DNA of 41,252 nucleotides from a virus. Lineage: Duplodnaviria; Heunggongvirae; Uroviricota; Caudoviricetes. Under the pieces are notes generated by a model. That model was not told the origin of the DNA. It made no database searches and was given only the letters and a program-made list of their open reading frames with translations. The stretch is from the IMG/VR virus record IMGVR_UViG_2623620416_000002, positions 1-41,252 of that record. One strand, given 5' to 3'. The position numbers and the translations under genes were made by a program. Of the stretch, positions 80-6,836 are shown in pieces; the first letter of the stretch is position 1, and every line of letters begins with the position of its first letter.

Positions 80-874
80 GCTTCAGTCTCTAAATATATT
101 GAAGAGTTCAGAGGAGCAGATTTGGGAATGGTTGTTTTTGACGAGACACATCACACCCCAGCCTCCACCTTTTTTGACATCGCTGAAGGACTTGCAAACG
201 TTGGTAAAATTTTTGGTCTTACTGCAACGGACTACAGATCTGACGGAAAAGACATCCTCATTACTGCAGGATGTGGACCAGTCCTTATCCGACGCGACAT
301 TAAGTGGGGAGTCGAAAACGGATTCTTAGCAGAGCCTTATTTCATTATTCGTGAAGTTGCTACTGGCGGCAAAGACTTTAAAGATGATAAATTGAAAGCT
401 TATAAAGAACATATTCTTAATAATCAGCCAATGAAAACTCGCATTGAATCAGATGCTCGTTCTATGATGGCTGCCGGTAAGGCGGTTTTGATTCTTGTAG
501 ATGAAGTTGCACATGGAGAAGAACTAGCTAAAAATCTAGGTATTCCTTTTGCTACAGGTCTAGATAAGAAATCACAAGATTATGTTGACCAATTGAATGC
601 TGGCAAGATCCCTGGATTGGTTGGGACAGATGGTAAAGTGGGTGAAGGAACAGATACAAAGAATGTTGATGTTCTTATTCTTGCCAACTTTGTAGCCTCA
701 AAAGGCCCTGTTACACAGGCCATTGGTCGTGGACTTCGTAAACAGGGTACAAAGACTAAATGCTTAATCCTAGACTATATTCCTAATGGATCCACTATGT
801 TGACTAGACATGCTAATAATCGTATTGGCTTTTATGAAGAGATCAGCGACAAGGTAAAGGTGATTAAACTGTGA
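80..874 (+). CDS. Superfamily 2 DNA helicase (UvsW-like), 5'-truncated
   Basis: The frame is open from ~80 (ASVSKYIEEF...). It contains Walker B/motif II VVFDETHH, motif III LTATDYRSDG, motif V GEGTD and motif VI QAIGRGLR. Walker A is missing, so the TTG at 122 is not the true start. Confidence 0.85.
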   Translation, partial: ASVSKYIEEFRGADLGMVVFDETHHTPASTFFDIAEGLANVGKIFGLTATDYRSDGKDILITAGCGPVLIRRDIKWGVENGFLAEPYFIIREVATGGKDFKDDKLKAYKEHILNNQPMKTRIESDARSMMAAGKAVLILVDEVAHGEELAKNLGIPFATGLDKKSQDYVDQLNAGKIPGLVGTDGKVGEGTDTKNVDVLILANFVASKGPVTQAIGRGLRKQGTKTKCLILDYIPNGSTMLTRHANNRIGFYEEISDKVKVIKL

Positions 875-1110
875 GAATAAAAGGCGATCTAAATGAGTTT
901 TTAGGTAATGTTGAAGCTGATGTCAAACACGCTGTTCAGCAATCTTTTATAGTTAACGCTCCAAGCTATTATGGCGAACAGGTATCTTTTAACTTTAATG
1001 AAATGATATCAAAGGCTGTAGCAGTTGGTGTTTCTGCAGCTATGGAACGACTTATCGCTAGTCAGTACACAGATGAAGATTTTGAGCACGATATTGGACT
1101 TAAACCCTAG
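871..1110 (+). CDS. Hypothetical protein, 79 aa
   Basis: GTGA overlap with the helicase stop; fills the gap exactly; TAG stop. Confidence 0.7.
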   Translation: MRIKGDLNEFLGNVEADVKHAVQQSFIVNAPSYYGEQVSFNFNEMISKAVAVGVSAAMERLIASQYTDEDFEHDIGLKP

Positions 1111-1116
1111 TATAAT
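1110..1116 (+). promoter_or_regulatory. -10 box GTATAAT, leaderless geometry
   Basis: TATAAT at 1111-1116, 6 nt before ATG 1123; no SD or -35. Confidence 0.7.
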
Positions 1117-1122
1117 AACTAA

Positions 1123-2550
1123 ATGCCACTTAGTAAAAAAGATCTATCTGATATAGCAAACGAATTCGCCACATCTAAGGGTGAACAGGTAGATGATAAA
1201 GCTGCTATTCCTAATGTTCAAGAGCAGGTAGATAAGAAGAATGAGCAAGCTGCTCGTTTATATATTCTTTATAATGATGCCCATATTGAGCGCGTAACTC
1301 CATATGAAACTGAGCGTCGATGGCTTGATGGCACTACATATACAACTATAACTAAACCTCAGATTGAGACATTTGCACCAGATACAGGAAAGGCTACGTA
1401 CTTTTATCCTGTAAGTTGGACTAAGTCAAGCGCACAGCTTCAACCAAACGGCAATGGAAACCCTCAGACATCTAGCTCTAATTCTGAACAAGCAGTTTTA
1501 CAAGCGACATTAGATAATAATGGCTTAATTGCCTCAGTATTACTTCTCCTTAATGGTCAAAGTACTGGAGCGCCATCGAGAACTTTAGATTTAGCATACA
1601 GTCCTGGTTCGCCAACATTAACATTTACAACTAGTCATAGTTTTGCTATTGGTAATTTGCTTTGGGTATCAGGTTCAGGAACATCAGCTTTGGTTCGAGT
1701 TACGGCAACAACATCTTTAACAGTTGATATTACGGAGATTATTGCTCCTGCTTCTACTATTTCAATAGGTGGAACAGCGGCATCGAATGTTGCAGGATTT
1801 ACTAATACAGAACGTCAAAATTTGACATCTGCTTTATATCAGAGAATTCTAACAGAACTAACTAACAGAATTTCTACAGCAGCAGGTCTATACAATACGG
1901 CTTTAACAAATCAATTAGCTCAACTCAATATCAATATTGATGCGCCTACACAAATTACAGCTGCAAAGACTTCTATCAGTACAGCTAAAACTGCCTATAC
2001 TACTTGGAGTACTGCACCTGCAACAGGCGTTGGCGGTCGATGGACAGATACAGTTCTTGGAAACTTCACAACTAGCTATAATTCCAGAAACTCTGGGATT
2101 GCTGCGCGAGTGGGTCAGATTACGACCGCTCTTGGATCAGTATCTCAAGATGCTGAGGGTAATTATTCTGGGAACGGTAATTATCTTCAAAGATTCAAGT
2201 GTTTAAATTTTCTTATCAATACCGCAAATGGGCCTCTTCAACAGGCTTTTAGTTTAACGGCGGCTAAAGGTAATTTTGAACAAAAGGTTATTAATAATGC
2301 CGATAAGTTAGCAACTTTCTCTAACTTAGTCCGCTATGCTGGGTTAACTAAGGATCCAGTTGGAAATACTATTACTGTAGATGGGGCCTCTCAATTTGCT
2401 CCAGGCGATGCTGTATTACTTTGCGGAAAAGACTTGCCCTCTACAGAATGCACCATTTCTAGTATTTCTGGCACTTCTGTAGTTTTAAGCATTACAGTGC
2501 CAAAAGAATTCACTAAGGCAGCTAAGTCTGGCATTATAAAGCGAGTTTAG
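1123..2550 (+). CDS. Hypothetical protein, probably virion structural, 475 aa
   Basis: Long ORF rich in T/S/A/G/N with predicted beta-rich and helical segments; lies next to the endolysin; no recognisable motif. Confidence 0.6.
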   Translation: MPLSKKDLSDIANEFATSKGEQVDDKAAIPNVQEQVDKKNEQAARLYILYNDAHIERVTPYETERRWLDGTTYTTITKPQIETFAPDTGKATYFYPVSWTKSSAQLQPNGNGNPQTSSSNSEQAVLQATLDNNGLIASVLLLLNGQSTGAPSRTLDLAYSPGSPTLTFTTSHSFAIGNLLWVSGSGTSALVRVTATTSLTVDITEIIAPASTISIGGTAASNVAGFTNTERQNLTSALYQRILTELTNRISTAAGLYNTALTNQLAQLNINIDAPTQITAAKTSISTAKTAYTTWSTAPATGVGGRWTDTVLGNFTTSYNSRNSGIAARVGQITTALGSVSQDAEGNYSGNGNYLQRFKCLNFLINTANGPLQQAFSLTAAKGNFEQKVINNADKLATFSNLVRYAGLTKDPVGNTITVDGASQFAPGDAVLLCGKDLPSTECTISSISGTSVVLSITVPKEFTKAAKSGIIKRV

Positions 2551-2551
2551 T

Positions 2552-2558
2552 GTATAAT
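2552..2558 (+). promoter_or_regulatory. -10 box GTATAAT, leaderless geometry
   Basis: TATAAT at 2553-2558, 7 nt before ATG 2566. Confidence 0.7.
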
Positions 2559-2565
2559 ATAAGTC

Positions 2566-3114
2566 ATGAGACCAGTAAATAAAGCTGGAATTGACTTAAT
2601 CAAATCATTTGAAGGTCTATTCCTAAAACCATATTTAGATCCTATTAAGATCCCAACTATTGGTTATGGAACCATTGTTTATCCTAATGGTAAAAAAGTT
2701 ACGATGCAAGATCGTGCTATTACTGAAGCTGAAGCTACTGAATACTTAATGCACGAAGTTGAAGAGAAAGCTCATAATGTTGAGCGCATGACAAAAGTAA
2801 AACTTAATGACAATGAGTATGCAGCTCTTGTAAGCTTCGCTTATAATGTTGGTTGGCCTGCACTTGAGAAGTCAACTTTAATGAAGCTCCTGAATGCAGG
2901 GAGTGACCGTGGTGCAGTTGCTGATCAGTTCTTGAGATGGAATAAGGCTGGCGGCAAAGAACTTGCAGGATTGACACGCAGACGTCAAGCTGAGCGCTCA
3001 CTTTTCTTGCAACCTGTTGTAGAATCTAAAGCAGAACACTTGCCATCCGGCCCCTCGGATGACGACATTAACGCAAAGCTTAAAAAGCTGGAGGACGAGA
3101 TTATGAAGAAATAG
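2566..3114 (+). CDS. Endolysin, GH24 phage lysozyme
   Basis: Catalytic E-x8-D-x5-T triad in SFEGLFLKPYLDPIKIPTIGYG, plus ALVSFAYNVG and GLTRRRQAER motifs. Confidence 0.93.
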   Translation: MRPVNKAGIDLIKSFEGLFLKPYLDPIKIPTIGYGTIVYPNGKKVTMQDRAITEAEATEYLMHEVEEKAHNVERMTKVKLNDNEYAALVSFAYNVGWPALEKSTLMKLLNAGSDRGAVADQFLRWNKAGGKELAGLTRRRQAERSLFLQPVVESKAEHLPSGPSDDDINAKLKKLEDEIMKK

Positions 3115-3193: not shown

Positions 3194-3484
3194 ATGAAAA
3201 TTCATTTAGCTACACTTAAAGCAGAACTAAAAGTTCTTGCAATCGAAATCAGAACATTAAAATCAAAACGCAAAGAGATGCGTGGATACGTACCTGGATT
3301 GAGCTCTGCTCAAGAACAGTTTCGCATTAAACATATTGCTCGTTGCCTTCTTCGCGGAAGAACACTAGAGCAGATAGAGCCAAAGCTTCGCGATCCAAAC
3401 AGCTATCATCATGCATACATTCGCAAACAAGCTGCAAAGATTGTTGCTGCTGCACTGGAGGTAGAGAATGCAGCCCAGCCATAA
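3194..3484 (+). CDS. Hypothetical basic protein, 96 aa
   Basis: GGAG SD upstream; contains RIKHIARCLLRGRTLEQIE; overlaps the Pth2-like gene. Confidence 0.7.
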   Translation: MKIHLATLKAELKVLAIEIRTLKSKRKEMRGYVPGLSSAQEQFRIKHIARCLLRGRTLEQIEPKLRDPNSYHHAYIRKQAAKIVAAALEVENAAQP

Positions 3485-3764
3485 ACTCTACATCCTCGTT
3501 GATAAAAGACTCAACCCATCGCAGCGAGCTGTTCAAGCATGCCATGTTGGAATTGAGTTCGCAAAGAAGTATCCAGAGTGGAAACACCAGTCGGTTGTCA
3601 TACTCGGGTGCGACGGAGAGATGGAGCTCATCGATAAGGCCGCTGAATTCCTTTTTGCGGGCTTATCGTTTACAACGTTTTCTGAAACGTATTGGAATAA
3701 CCGCATCACTGCGGTCGCCGTACACGGAGCAGACGAAATGTTAAAGGAGTTATCCTTGATTTAA
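3468..3764 (+). CDS. Peptidyl-tRNA hydrolase II (Pth2)-like protein
   Basis: KLYILVDKRLNPSQRAVQACH resembles the Pth2 N-terminal motif; SVVIL and the C-terminal F.E...TAVAV fit the fold; adjacent to tRNAs. Confidence 0.65.
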   Translation: MQPSHKLYILVDKRLNPSQRAVQACHVGIEFAKKYPEWKHQSVVILGCDGEMELIDKAAEFLFAGLSFTTFSETYWNNRITAVAVHGADEMLKELSLI

Positions 3765-3766
3765 TA

Positions 3767-3773
3767 GTATAAT
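3767..3773 (+). promoter_or_regulatory. -10 box GTATAAT driving the RNA island
   Basis: TATAAT at 3768-3773, immediately before the structured RNA at 3778. Confidence 0.7.
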
Positions 3774-3777
3774 GTAA

Positions 3778-3955
3778 GTGCACGGCCGCGTAAACGGAGG
3801 GTGATTCCGGATAGAGGGTTGTAAAGAGTTTTACGACGTTCTTCCCTTGATTTGTTGCCCACCTGCTAGTACCTATGCCGGAGTCGTTGGTGTCACAGCC
3901 TCATCTCGCAAGAGACGGTGGTTACAAAGTGTGACAATAATCTAGCCCGTGCACC
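3778..3955 (+). ncRNA. Uncharacterised ~180-nt structured RNA
   Basis: Closing stem GTGCACGG (3778-85)/CCGTGCAC (3947-54). Internal stems GATTCCGG-ATAG/CTAT-G-CCGGAGTC, GTTGTAAA/TTTACGAC, TGTCAC/GTGACA and TCTC-GCAA-GAGA (GNRA loop). Several G-U pairs; own promoter; no ORF. Confidence 0.65.
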
Positions 3956-3966
3956 TTTTCTTCTAT

Positions 3967-4134
3967 GCCCGAGTATGCTCAGTGGTAGAGTGCTCAACTT
4001 GGAATAAATTATAGTCGTCAGAAGTGATCAACTGCAATATAATTTGTTCAGCTTAAAAAGCTCACATGACGGTGGGAGTTAGTATAAGTACTAAATAGCT
4101 TGAGAGGACGGTGGTTCGAATCCATCCTCGGGCT
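3967..4134 (+). tRNA. tRNA (probably Pro, TGG) interrupted by a ~95-nt insertion in the anticodon loop
   Basis: Acceptor GCCCGAG/CTCGGGC, D arm GCTC-AGTGGTA-GAGT, anticodon stem CTCAA (3993-97)/TTGAG (4100-04), T arm GGTGG-TTCGAAT-CCATC. Loop CTTGGAA is followed by extra sequence 4005-4099. No encoded CCA; one extra nt between the acceptor and D stems. Confidence 0.75.
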
Positions 4135-4152
4135 CTAACTTAAGGAGAAAAT

Positions 4153-4458: not shown

Positions 4459-4534
4459 GCTCCGTTAGCTCAGTGGTCAGAGCAGTCGTCTCTAAAACGT
4501 ACGGTCAGGGGTTCGAATCCCTTACGGAGCTCCA
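4459..4534 (+). tRNA. Amber suppressor tRNA (anticodon CTA)
   Basis: GCTCCGT/ACGGAGC acceptor, GCTC/GAGC D stem, loop CT-CTA-AA (anticodon 4492-94), T arm AGGGG-TTCGAAT-CCCTT, discriminator T and encoded CCA. The anticodon stem has only 3 Watson-Crick pairs. Confidence 0.88.
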
Positions 4535-4539
4535 ATCTT

Positions 4540-4872
4540 ATGGTTAATAAACTCGGCGAAAACTTTACAAAACAATTAAAATTAAACCTACTTCCAGGTA
4601 TTTCTCTTCCTCGTGGTATTTACCAGATGGAAATTCAATACGTCACCGATACTGGCGGCAATGTCACTATACATCACATGTTTCAAAGTATGATGCGCGA
4701 ACTTAAAAATGAATACGATGTTATAGTTGGGCAAGATGTGCGATCGGTAGATGTTCGTATATTTTGTCACAATTCATTTCCAACCAACCCATTAATTTCT
4801 TATCGATACCAAATGCGTATTGATCGATTAATTCTGCTTAATCTTGCTGTTCGCCTACTAGATATCAAATAA
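4540..4872 (+). CDS. Hypothetical protein, 110 aa
   Basis: ORF fills the space between the tRNA and the hairpin cluster; no motif. Confidence 0.55.
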   Translation: MVNKLGENFTKQLKLNLLPGISLPRGIYQMEIQYVTDTGGNVTIHHMFQSMMRELKNEYDVIVGQDVRSVDVRIFCHNSFPTNPLISYRYQMRIDRLILLNLAVRLLDIK

Positions 4873-5098
4873 AACCCTTTAGAAAACCGGGAAGGGCCCA
4901 GGTCTACTCTTCCTTAAAGGGTTTTTCTTACTTGCCGCGCGCGGCTCTCGCTCGCGAGTGCGTGCTCTGCACGCACGTAGAGTAAGTAAGAGTTCGAAAC
5001 GAAGACCTTTGGTCTTCGTTGCGGGGCTGGTGTAAAATCTGATTTGTTCTGGTTAGCTAGGTTAGCCAGGGGGAATCTAGAGAAATTTATACCCGCGA
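4871..5098. repeat. Cluster of inverted repeats/hairpins in a GC-rich non-coding island (candidate origin or structured RNA)
   Basis: AAAACCCTTTA/TAAAGGGTTTT (4871-4925), TCTTACTT/AAGTAAGA, palindrome GCCGCGCGCGGC (4934-45), TGCGTGC-TCT-GCACGCA (4959-75), AACGAAGACC-TTT-GGTCTTCGTT (4998-5020) and CTGGTTAGC-TAG-GTTAGCCAG (5049-69) within a longer imperfect stem to 5098. Confidence 0.75.
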
Positions 5099-5158
5099 CA
5101 ATGGCATTTTTAACTCAGTTCAGAAAATAAATTTTCACCACCAAGAAACCCCAAAACA

Positions 5159-5165
5159 GTATAAT
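5159..5165 (+). promoter_or_regulatory. -10 box GTATAAT, leaderless geometry
   Basis: TATAAT at 5160-5165, 6 nt before ATG 5172. Confidence 0.7.
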
Positions 5166-5171
5166 CACGCC

Positions 5172-6074: not shown

Positions 6075-6836
6075 ATGAAGCTAGACAACTTTTCAAGCCT
6101 ATTTAAAACATCTGTGCGCATACAGGAAACTGATGCGATGTCAGCTGATGCTGTTTGGCCAGCTAATACAGAAATATGTATCACTCGTATCCCTATTCGA
6201 AAACGCGATGGCTGGGATGTCAAAAAATTTGAAGAATTTGCAAAACGATTAAAAGCCAATATGGTTCCAAATGGAATCGTATTTCTAATCTGTTATGCTC
6301 CTATTGAGGCTAAGTCAAGACCTTTTGAGGTTGCCAAGTTAATGACTGACGCTGGATTTAATCATGTAGATAATATTGTTATTAAGAAGACCTGGTTCCC
6401 AGGCAAACGCTCAGAAACTAACTTAGTTAACTCACATGAATACGTATTACATTTCTGCAATGGAGATGTATGGAAATTAGATCGCCTTCCTCTTAGACAA
6501 TACATGAAAGTTCACGATGATTTAAGTTGCCCAGGAAATACTTGGGAAATTGAGACCGGCTCCCTAGATGAGAGTTATCCGGTAGATTTAGCAGAGCTGC
6601 TAATCAGAATGACTAATTGCCTTCCAGGTTCTGTTGTGTTTGATCCACATTGTGGTGGAACAGGTTCACTAAAAGCTGCACTAAAACTGGGACATAGTTT
6701 CTTTGGTTTTGAAACTGATAAGAAACAGTTAAAGAAGTACGAGAAGGTAGTATCTGACTATAATGATGGCAAGCTTGATCAGCCAGAATCTAAGAAGCCT
6801 GCAAAGAAGATAGTTGAAGAAGGGGATGATTTTTAA
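6075..6836 (+). CDS. N4/N6 DNA methyltransferase-like protein (beta class) with a degenerate catalytic motif
   Basis: SAM-binding motif I VVFDPHCGGTGSLKAALKLGHSFFGFE near the C-terminus and HEYVLHF. The expected (D/N/S)PPY position reads ICITRIP. Confidence 0.75.
   Translation: MKLDNFSSLFKTSVRIQETDAMSADAVWPANTEICITRIPIRKRDGWDVKKFEEFAKRLKANMVPNGIVFLICYAPIEAKSRPFEVAKLMTDAGFNHVDNIVIKKTWFPGKRSETNLVNSHEYVLHFCNGDVWKLDRLPLRQYMKVHDDLSCPGNTWEIETGSLDESYPVDLAELLIRMTNCLPGSVVFDPHCGGTGSLKAALKLGHSFFGFETDKKQLKKYEKVVSDYNDGKLDQPESKKPAKKIVEEGDDF

Follow-up and report, generated by a model that had tools for sequence, protein, structure and literature searches.

A conserved pseudoknotted RNA gene, apparently of an undescribed family, in a variable tRNA-associated slot of an uncultured phage clade

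The stretch of DNA considered here, referred to throughout as the window, is a viral sequence of 41,252 nucleotides (Caudoviricetes) that makes up the first 41 kb of contig C305 (146,658 bp, 38% GC), which belongs to the metagenome-assembled genome G000 (3.96 Mb, 43% GC). On comparative grounds, the element at approximately 3779-3953 on the + strand of the window is a real and conserved non-coding RNA gene of about 175 nucleotides, whose family is apparently undescribed and whose fold is unusually intricate for its size. No open reading frame (ORF) of 60 or more amino acids overlaps it. An original prediction, made from the window alone, had placed a new phage non-coding RNA with its own promoter at 3778-3955, and in this respect it is borne out: a GTATAAT motif followed by a structured RNA with a closing stem is seen at that position, 11 covarying homologs exist, and the motif lies ahead of each of them. 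The RNA is known here from sequence alone, in 11 copies from one uncultured phage clade.

Folding energy by itself is modest evidence for an RNA gene. The minimum-energy fold of the + strand reaches -62.5 kcal/mol (z -2.17), a value that 3 of 200 shuffled sequences folded as well as, and the - strand reaches -53.8 kcal/mol (z -1.42); it is the comparative data that settle the existence of the RNA. Related phage loci, designated L001 and so on, were collected with the neighbouring proteins as bait (about 60 loci), with more added by DNA patterns, and among them are 11 distinct copies of the RNA, 158-201 nt in length and 58-96% identical over the core. The family covariance model, R1, scores these copies at 139-176 bits, although they are the same copies from which the model was built. 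Over 1.0 Mb of related loci it has no further match at E<=1, and it detects neither another copy in G000 nor any in 150 genomes of the phylum of the metagenome-assembled genome. In addition, four more pattern scans, aimed at different regions of the core, and one of genome contigs returned only known copies or chance matches, the chance candidates being discarded by the model or by inspection. With blastn, the only match to cultured phages was in the T arm of a tRNA, and plasmids gave no match. DNA of these phages is present in SRR29904083 and SRR29904084.

All 37 counted core pairs are canonical in all 11 copies, and parsimony on the RNA tree counts 26 joint (two-sided) changes, eight of them in a pseudoknot. 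When every helix of the model is included, even the misaligned variable arm, 93.9% of cells are paired and 23 pairs show two-sided change, as against 32-46% and 3-9 pairs in a control with the partners slid. The model helices hold 46 G-U cells versus 0 A-C cells when read on the + strand, as expected of a + strand RNA and in agreement with the G-U pairs originally noted on that strand. Invariant positions number 62 of the 127 in the core, and many are found in loops, bulges and linkers.

The fold supported by covariation, a model derived from the same 11 sequences, differs from the minimum-energy fold. In this model, helices P1, P2, P3 and P6 meet without an unpaired base to form a perfect four-way junction, and a pseudoknot (PK) that starts directly after P3 crosses both P3 and P6, tying together the two long arms. 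The closing stem, P1 (3779-3785/3947-3953; all features of the element are on the + strand), consists of seven pairs that are canonical in 11 of 11 copies, with four joint changes. A closing stem of 8 bp had been predicted and is present in this copy, but only the inner seven pairs are conserved, the outermost pair (3778-3954) being canonical in just 5 of 11. P2 (3786-3797) is a hairpin of 3 bp (3786-3788/3795-3797), of which two pairs have changed on both sides, with four joint changes, and it is capped by the hexaloop CGUAAA (3789-3794), invariant in all 11 copies. P3 (3798-3802/3857-3864, with a 3-nt YAC bulge at 3860-3862) is absent from the minimum-energy fold; its two junction pairs occur as AG/CU, GU/AC and AU/AU, and its GGU/GCC part is invariant. 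The pseudoknot (3803-3810/3878-3885) is 8 bp long here and 7-10 bp in every homolog, with eight joint changes over six aligned pairs.

Inside the P3 arm lies the P4/P5 arm (3812-3850), in which P4 (3812-3818/3844-3850) covaries, with five joint changes over three aligned pairs, and in which all six pairs of the P5 hairpin (3820-3835, GAGN loop) are invariant, hence a pairing without covariation support. An asymmetric loop in the same arm carries an invariant GUUC (3838-3841). P6 (3865-3869/3942-3946) is canonical in 11 of 11 copies, with a double compensatory change from AG/CU to GA/UC in L004 and L068 that represents a single event on the tree, and an invariant UAC linker (3870-3872) follows its 5' strand. 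The 3' strand of the pseudoknot, placed by covariation, runs into an invariant GUU (together 3878-3888), and it is possible that this GUU (3886-3888) forms a 3-bp helix, P7, with an invariant AAU (3939-3941), bases whose invariance precludes covariation. Between the two is the variable arm, P8 (3889-3938), which measures 25-68 nt in the homologs, is not conserved in sequence, and in per-sequence folds takes the form of either a hairpin or a small junction. The AAU and the 3' strands of P6 and P1 are then contiguous (3939-3954). A candidate 2-bp contact between 3872-3873 and 3889-3890 combines an invariant C-G pair with a C-G/U-A change that tracks the split between subtypes and amounts to one event.

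There are thus more than the four further helices that had been predicted as a minimum, but the detail of the original prediction fares unevenly. Of its two GNRA-type loops, GTAA belongs to the invariant hexaloop and is not clearly of that type, and GCAA is present in the variable arm of only this copy and that of L010. An alternative pairing of 3799-3806 with 3939-3948, on which a two-state switch had been proposed, can be drawn in the window but is not conserved, with 76% of cells paired and three of eight pairs broken in 5-8 of the 11 copies, whereas the helix with which it was said to compete is 100% paired, with two-sided change at five of six counted pairs; the proposed switch fails with it. 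The long pairing of 3799-3805 with 3854-3860 in the minimum-energy fold was also set aside, as it is not conserved across the homologs.

The promoter motif, GTATAAT at 3767-3773 on the + strand, resembles a -10 element and has no accompanying -35. It is found ahead of the RNA in 11 of 11 homologs, with a predicted start at about 3780 +/-1; a start near 3780, as estimated from the promoter offset, would fit the non-conservation of the 3778-3954 pair. On C305 the motif occurs 39 times versus 28 expected, a count that by itself is unremarkable. However, 29 of the 39 copies are in non-coding DNA, which is 15% of the contig, 29 are within 100 nt of a gene start, and 17 are followed by an ATG at an offset of 13-15. 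The motif reads as a phage-wide, -10-only promoter that often gives a leaderless mRNA. A generic promoter scan misses the copy at the RNA gene because there is no -35, and no match to sigma-70 region 2 was found on C305. Replication, lysis and head genes are all preceded by the same motif, so the timing of expression cannot be inferred from it. Instances of GTATAAT without a -35 and then ATG can be seen in the window at 1110, 2552, 5159, 10936, 14389 and 36387, for example. At the other end of the RNA, a U/pyrimidine tract (3955-3965, + strand) follows P1 in all 11 copies, being shortest in L082, and may be a site of termination or 3'-processing. The unit led by the RNA is short, and a separate promoter at 5159 serves the next gene. 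At 871-3114 of the window, three consecutive ORFs ending in TAG lie in one frame with gaps of 12 and 15 nt. A suppressor-dependent fusion was considered for this series and discarded, as the arrangement is largely explained by a stop codon that overlaps or abuts the promoter motif, with an ATG about 13 nt further on; the series is probably a by-product of this overlap rather than a case of read-through by the tRNA with a CUA anticodon.

The genes found directly downstream of the RNA vary, with a tRNA-Pro-like gene that carries an insert in four copies, the CUA-anticodon tRNA in four, and only a gene for a 110-amino-acid protein in three (L001, L081 and L089). In the close relatives L007, L008, L009, L018 and L056, the slot does not contain the RNA. 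For instance, the promoter in L007 leads into the CUA tRNA, and in L008 and L018 the endolysin gene is followed straight away by the gene for the 110-amino-acid protein. From these arrangements, the smallest unit gained or lost between the endolysin gene and the gene for the 110-amino-acid protein is the promoter, RNA and U-tract together. Five relatives that are 91-100% complete lack the RNA genome-wide. A tree built from four proteins places all eight of the carriers that it covers in a single clade (FastTree support 0.93), which also contains two non-carriers, and the RNA subtypes do not track the phage protein tree, a mismatch that suggests exchange of the RNA between phages. More distant relatives have other promoter-driven, closed-stem RNAs in the same slot, none of which is matched by model R1. 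Such turnover of a slot is a pattern typical of accessory genes, and since relatives lack this RNA or hold other closed-stem RNAs in its place, it is, as judged from the loci compared, accessory cargo.

This distribution also bears on the suggestion that the RNA is co-transcribed with, and processes, the tRNAs behind it. Co-transcription is plausible where a tRNA lies 5-20 nt downstream. Processing is not supported: L001, L081 and L089 retain an intact RNA with no tRNA between the endolysin and dUTPase genes, L007 and L024 have the same promoter directly on the CUA tRNA and no RNA, the two near-complete carriers each encode a canonical RNase P RNA, and a comparison of the RNA with the tRNA-like RNA downstream gave no conserved pairing. 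The canonical RNase P RNA, of class A, is at C305:74981-75388 on the - strand, and was also found in three of five relatives tested (the genomes behind L010, L014 and L029).

No Rfam 15 family, including tmRNA (transfer-messenger RNA), 6S, SRP (signal recognition particle RNA), RNase P, riboswitches, ribozymes, ROOL and GOLLD, matches over 3778-3955 at the gathering threshold or at E<=10, and the copies in L001, L004 and L040 have no match at the gathering threshold. No description of the RNA was found in the literature, although it may have an entry among the roughly 10,000 viral candidate RNAs of Fremin et al. 2023 (PMC10690425). Being phage-encoded and covarying, lying in or near a tRNA island and having no coding role, the RNA can be assigned to a loose kind, the orphan structured RNAs of phage tRNA islands, while fitting in no known family of it. 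The RNAs C and D of phage T4 (rnaC and rnaD, or species 1 and 2 RNA), described as late RNAs of unknown function (PMC9697503), are similar in being structured, 119-139 nt in length and located in the tRNA cluster of a large phage, where, as here, an RNA that is not tRNA-like is followed within a few bases by one whose T arm is of tRNA type. However, there is no homology, model R1 having no match over either even with filters off, the predicted folds differ, and the present RNA heads its own promoter unit and persists without tRNAs. ROOL and GOLLD, found in phages and prophages, are likewise orphan RNAs with a pseudoknot; they often lie close to tRNA islands, and no protein partner of theirs is known (PMC12286853). 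The present RNA has no Rfam match to either and is much smaller than GOLLD, of which many members are >800 nt.

The RNA resembles RNase P RNA (RF00010) in that P1 closes it, the 3' strand of a pseudoknot helix lies directly against P1 and is preceded by a variable hairpin, and tRNAs are nearby. RNase P RNAs are recognised by the motifs CR-I and CR-V around P4, with its bulged U. Both motifs are missing from all 11 copies, no bulged U occurs in the P4-equivalent and no P5 or P15 in this RNA, and a search with RF00010 returns nothing but the separate, canonical C305 gene. The order of crossing helices is similar to that in the group I core and in GIR1, a lariat-capping ribozyme of similar size, with PK as P3, P6 as P7, an inserted domain and the variable arm as P8, but this order is common to many RNAs. 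Loose patterns for P7 and J8/7-type sequences of group I and GIR1 occur in only 2 of 11 and 1 of 11 copies, and the covariation model has no P9; conserved P7 or S sequences, a G-binding bulge, an equivalent of P6 and an exon context are missing as well. Core motifs of the hammerhead, hairpin and glmS ribozymes were each found in 0-1 of 11 copies, with no Rfam match. Features of tmRNA, SRP RNA and tRNA-like RNAs (a T-loop arm with CCA end, the SRP helix-8 motif) are in none of the 11, and ARAGORN detects no tmRNA in the window.

The copies and their loci show that one knotted fold is conserved, that the promoter motif is fixed in place, and that the RNA is independent of tRNAs and patchy in its distribution. 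With a confidence that is evenly balanced, we favour a stand-alone accessory RNA, namely a trans-acting decoy or aptamer that is recognised by its shape and plausibly serves counter-defence. By this mechanism, the RNA would be transcribed from the phage-wide GTATAAT promoter, beginning at about 3780, its 3' end would arise either at the U-tract or through cleavage of the following tRNA by RNase P, and the transcript would be stable because its ends are paired. The invariant loops and linkers may together present a surface to which a protein or small molecule binds. The weakest step is the next one, in which the RNA, working in trans as a decoy or aptamer, would bind either a small molecule or a protein of the host. 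The target would most likely be a translation- or tRNA-directed anti-phage function, as suggested by the CUA tRNA, the tRNA-like RNAs and the PTH2-like protein encoded nearby. That the RNA represents a new functional class, a protein-free phage aptamer or ribozyme directed against host immunity (for instance an RNA that soaks up an immune signal or inhibits a nuclease that cuts tRNAs), with the slot as an interchangeable RNA cassette, seems rather unlikely.

Several points weigh against the decoy or aptamer proposal. The link to counter-defence and translation is drawn solely from the neighbouring cargo and from the way the content of the slot turns over. The RNA has no consistently associated partner gene: the gene for the 110-amino-acid protein also occurs without it, on which account the protein was rejected as a toxin or partner, and the protein has no clear fold match. 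No mimicked host RNA was found in G000 or in the 150 genomes of the same phylum, which may not be that of the host. Y RNAs differ in having a Ro60/Rsr partner, for which no match (TROVE, PF05731) was found in G000, a genome 93% complete and with the phage contig included, and the RNAs of retrons and of defence-associated reverse transcriptases (DRTs) differ in having an adjacent reverse transcriptase, the neighbours here being endolysin, PTH2-like and dUTPase genes and G000 having no reverse transcriptase (PF00078) match. Finally, the comparison comprises only 11 sequences in two main subtypes, and among 2105 variable column pairs, 139 (6.6%) appear compensatory by chance, a rate at which single pairs are not individually significant, so that support comes from whole helices.

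Among other explanations, an RNA-only assembly or a switch of a different kind is unlikely, and would be compatible with the decoy or aptamer proposal. Here, the P2 loop (3789-3794) would pair with 3830-3835, either in cis, as a switch, or in a second molecule, giving a ring or cage of the type known from phi29 pRNA, ROOL and GOLLD. The segment 3830-3835, which is the 3' strand of P5, is complementary to the P2 loop as well as to 3820-3825 (P5, 5' strand), all 18 nt of the three segments are invariant in 11 of 11 copies, whereas most other helices vary, and the pairing with the loop is about 0.9 kcal/mol stronger as an isolated duplex. Moreover, ROOL and GOLLD, near phage tRNA islands, form RNA-only cages (PMC12286853). 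However, invariant columns allow no covariation, and a repeated, protein-binding YGUAAA motif would explain the invariance equally well. An essential packaging RNA is excluded by the lack of the RNA in complete relatives. A cis-acting leader controlling downstream transcription, whether riboswitch-like or an antiterminator like the put RNA of HK022, is quite unlikely. The RNA is always first in its transcript, directly behind the promoter and with a U-tract after it, its complexity and invariant linkers are aptamer-like, an ATG lies about 12 nt after P1 in L081 and L089, and a promoter-proximal structured RNA is what it has in common with put RNA and riboswitch aptamers; SAM-I, for one, is a four-way junction with a pseudoknot. 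Yet the RNA has no Rfam match, and inspection reveals no expression platform, that is, no conserved terminator, anti-terminator or helix sequestering a ribosome-binding site. The element downstream varies in three ways among the copies, L007, L008 and L018 have the same genes with the same promoter or none and lack the RNA, and the unit is short, with the next gene on a promoter of its own.

Doubtful to a slightly greater degree is a ribozyme of a new class, self-cleaving or else maturing or splicing the downstream tRNA, perhaps as the catalytic part, in trans, for the insert of about 95 nt in tRNA-Pro. The order of PK 5' strand, hairpin, P6 5' strand, PK 3' strand, hairpin and P6 3' strand resembles in topology the group I intron core (P3/P7) and that of RNase P (P2/P4), and all four tRNA-Pro genes with an insert that were found sit directly behind the RNA. 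Against this, the copies do not conserve the catalytic motifs of RNase P, group I, hammerhead, hairpin or glmS, a tRNA-Pro of this type is not downstream in 7 of 11 copies (others may exist elsewhere in fragmentary carriers), and the copies with no tRNA in the slot, the resident RNase P RNA and the lack of conserved pairing with tRNA-like RNA count here as they do against processing. A DNA-level element, such as a cruciform or operator array, or a non-functional spacer, is highly improbable: three YGTAAA boxes, two of them as an inverted repeat, and a folding z-score of only -2.2 would be consistent with it, but not the excess of G-U over A-C cells on the + strand, nor the covariation of crossing helices and a promoter fixed at the 5' end.

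Compact, pseudoknotted RNAs with a four-way junction and many invariant unpaired bases have the profile that has yielded riboswitches and ribozymes, and this RNA has that profile yet sits in no Rfam family. Its small size, paired ends and natural variants of 158-201 nt make it suited to production in vitro, probing and structure solution. In relatives, at least two further RNA families, covarying or repeated, occupy the slot, as do single cases, and these RNAs offer a comparative handle on an old question, namely the role of orphan RNAs in phage tRNA islands such as T4 RNA C and D, ROOL and GOLLD. A second undescribed family, of about 160 nt and with the same slot and promoter, is present in seven copies (L011:5683-5843, L021, L022, L029, L031, L033 and L034), with two-sided change at 22 of 42 predicted pairs and no Rfam match in L011 or L022. 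The slot RNAs of L025 (6075-6237) and L060 (1373-1527) share the first hairpin motif with this second family. Some slot RNAs are in tandem; L032 has RNAs at 6592-6727 and 6745-6797 and a unit of about 250 nt before 7426. Besides L032, single cases are L014:6069-6200, L061:3161-3258, L036 and L049.

The phage-like genes of the window include a helicase, endolysin, dUTPase, methyltransferase and GroEL, and elsewhere on C305 are about 20 tRNAs and the full RNase P RNA. The C305 GroEL is 34% identical to that of Myxococcus phage Mx1, and a capsid-like protein is about 32% identical to SPO1-type capsids. The RNA gene itself is flanked by a weakly PTH2-like gene (3468-3764) and by the tRNA-Pro-like gene (3967-4135, + strand; Rfam tRNA, 45.3 bits), a neighbour outside the RNA with the insert of about 95 nt in its anticodon loop. 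The corresponding genes in other loci are L010:6483-6651, L040:1793-1962 and L078:71-244 (- strand). The four inserts are structured, 91-96 nt long and placed after an NGG triplet. They have motifs in common and a 3' hairpin that covaries, and each has a G ahead of position 38, but the 5' junction does not resemble that of group I; the insert may be an intron or a permanent domain. A second kind of tRNA-like RNA (L004:7096-7245 and L082, about 985-1134), with an insert of about 65 nt apparently in the D loop, lies just upstream of the promoter. The tRNA with a CUA anticodon, of the amber-suppressor type (4459-4534, + strand), persists in much of the clade, both in loci that have the RNA and in loci that lack it, travelling with a basic protein of 96 amino acids and the PTH2-like protein (3194-3764 in the window); TAG is a normal stop codon in the phage (30 of 208 ORFs), and the endolysin gene often ends in it. 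The 110-amino-acid protein (4540-4872), encoded clade-wide, is mostly beta in a predicted model with a pLDDT (predicted local distance difference test) of 78, and has no fold match in the PDB or BFVD at E<=0.001, no Atlas match and no family match. A GC-rich, palindromic, non-coding island (4873-5170) lies ahead of the dUTPase gene, and similar-looking stretches are found there in L009 and L015.
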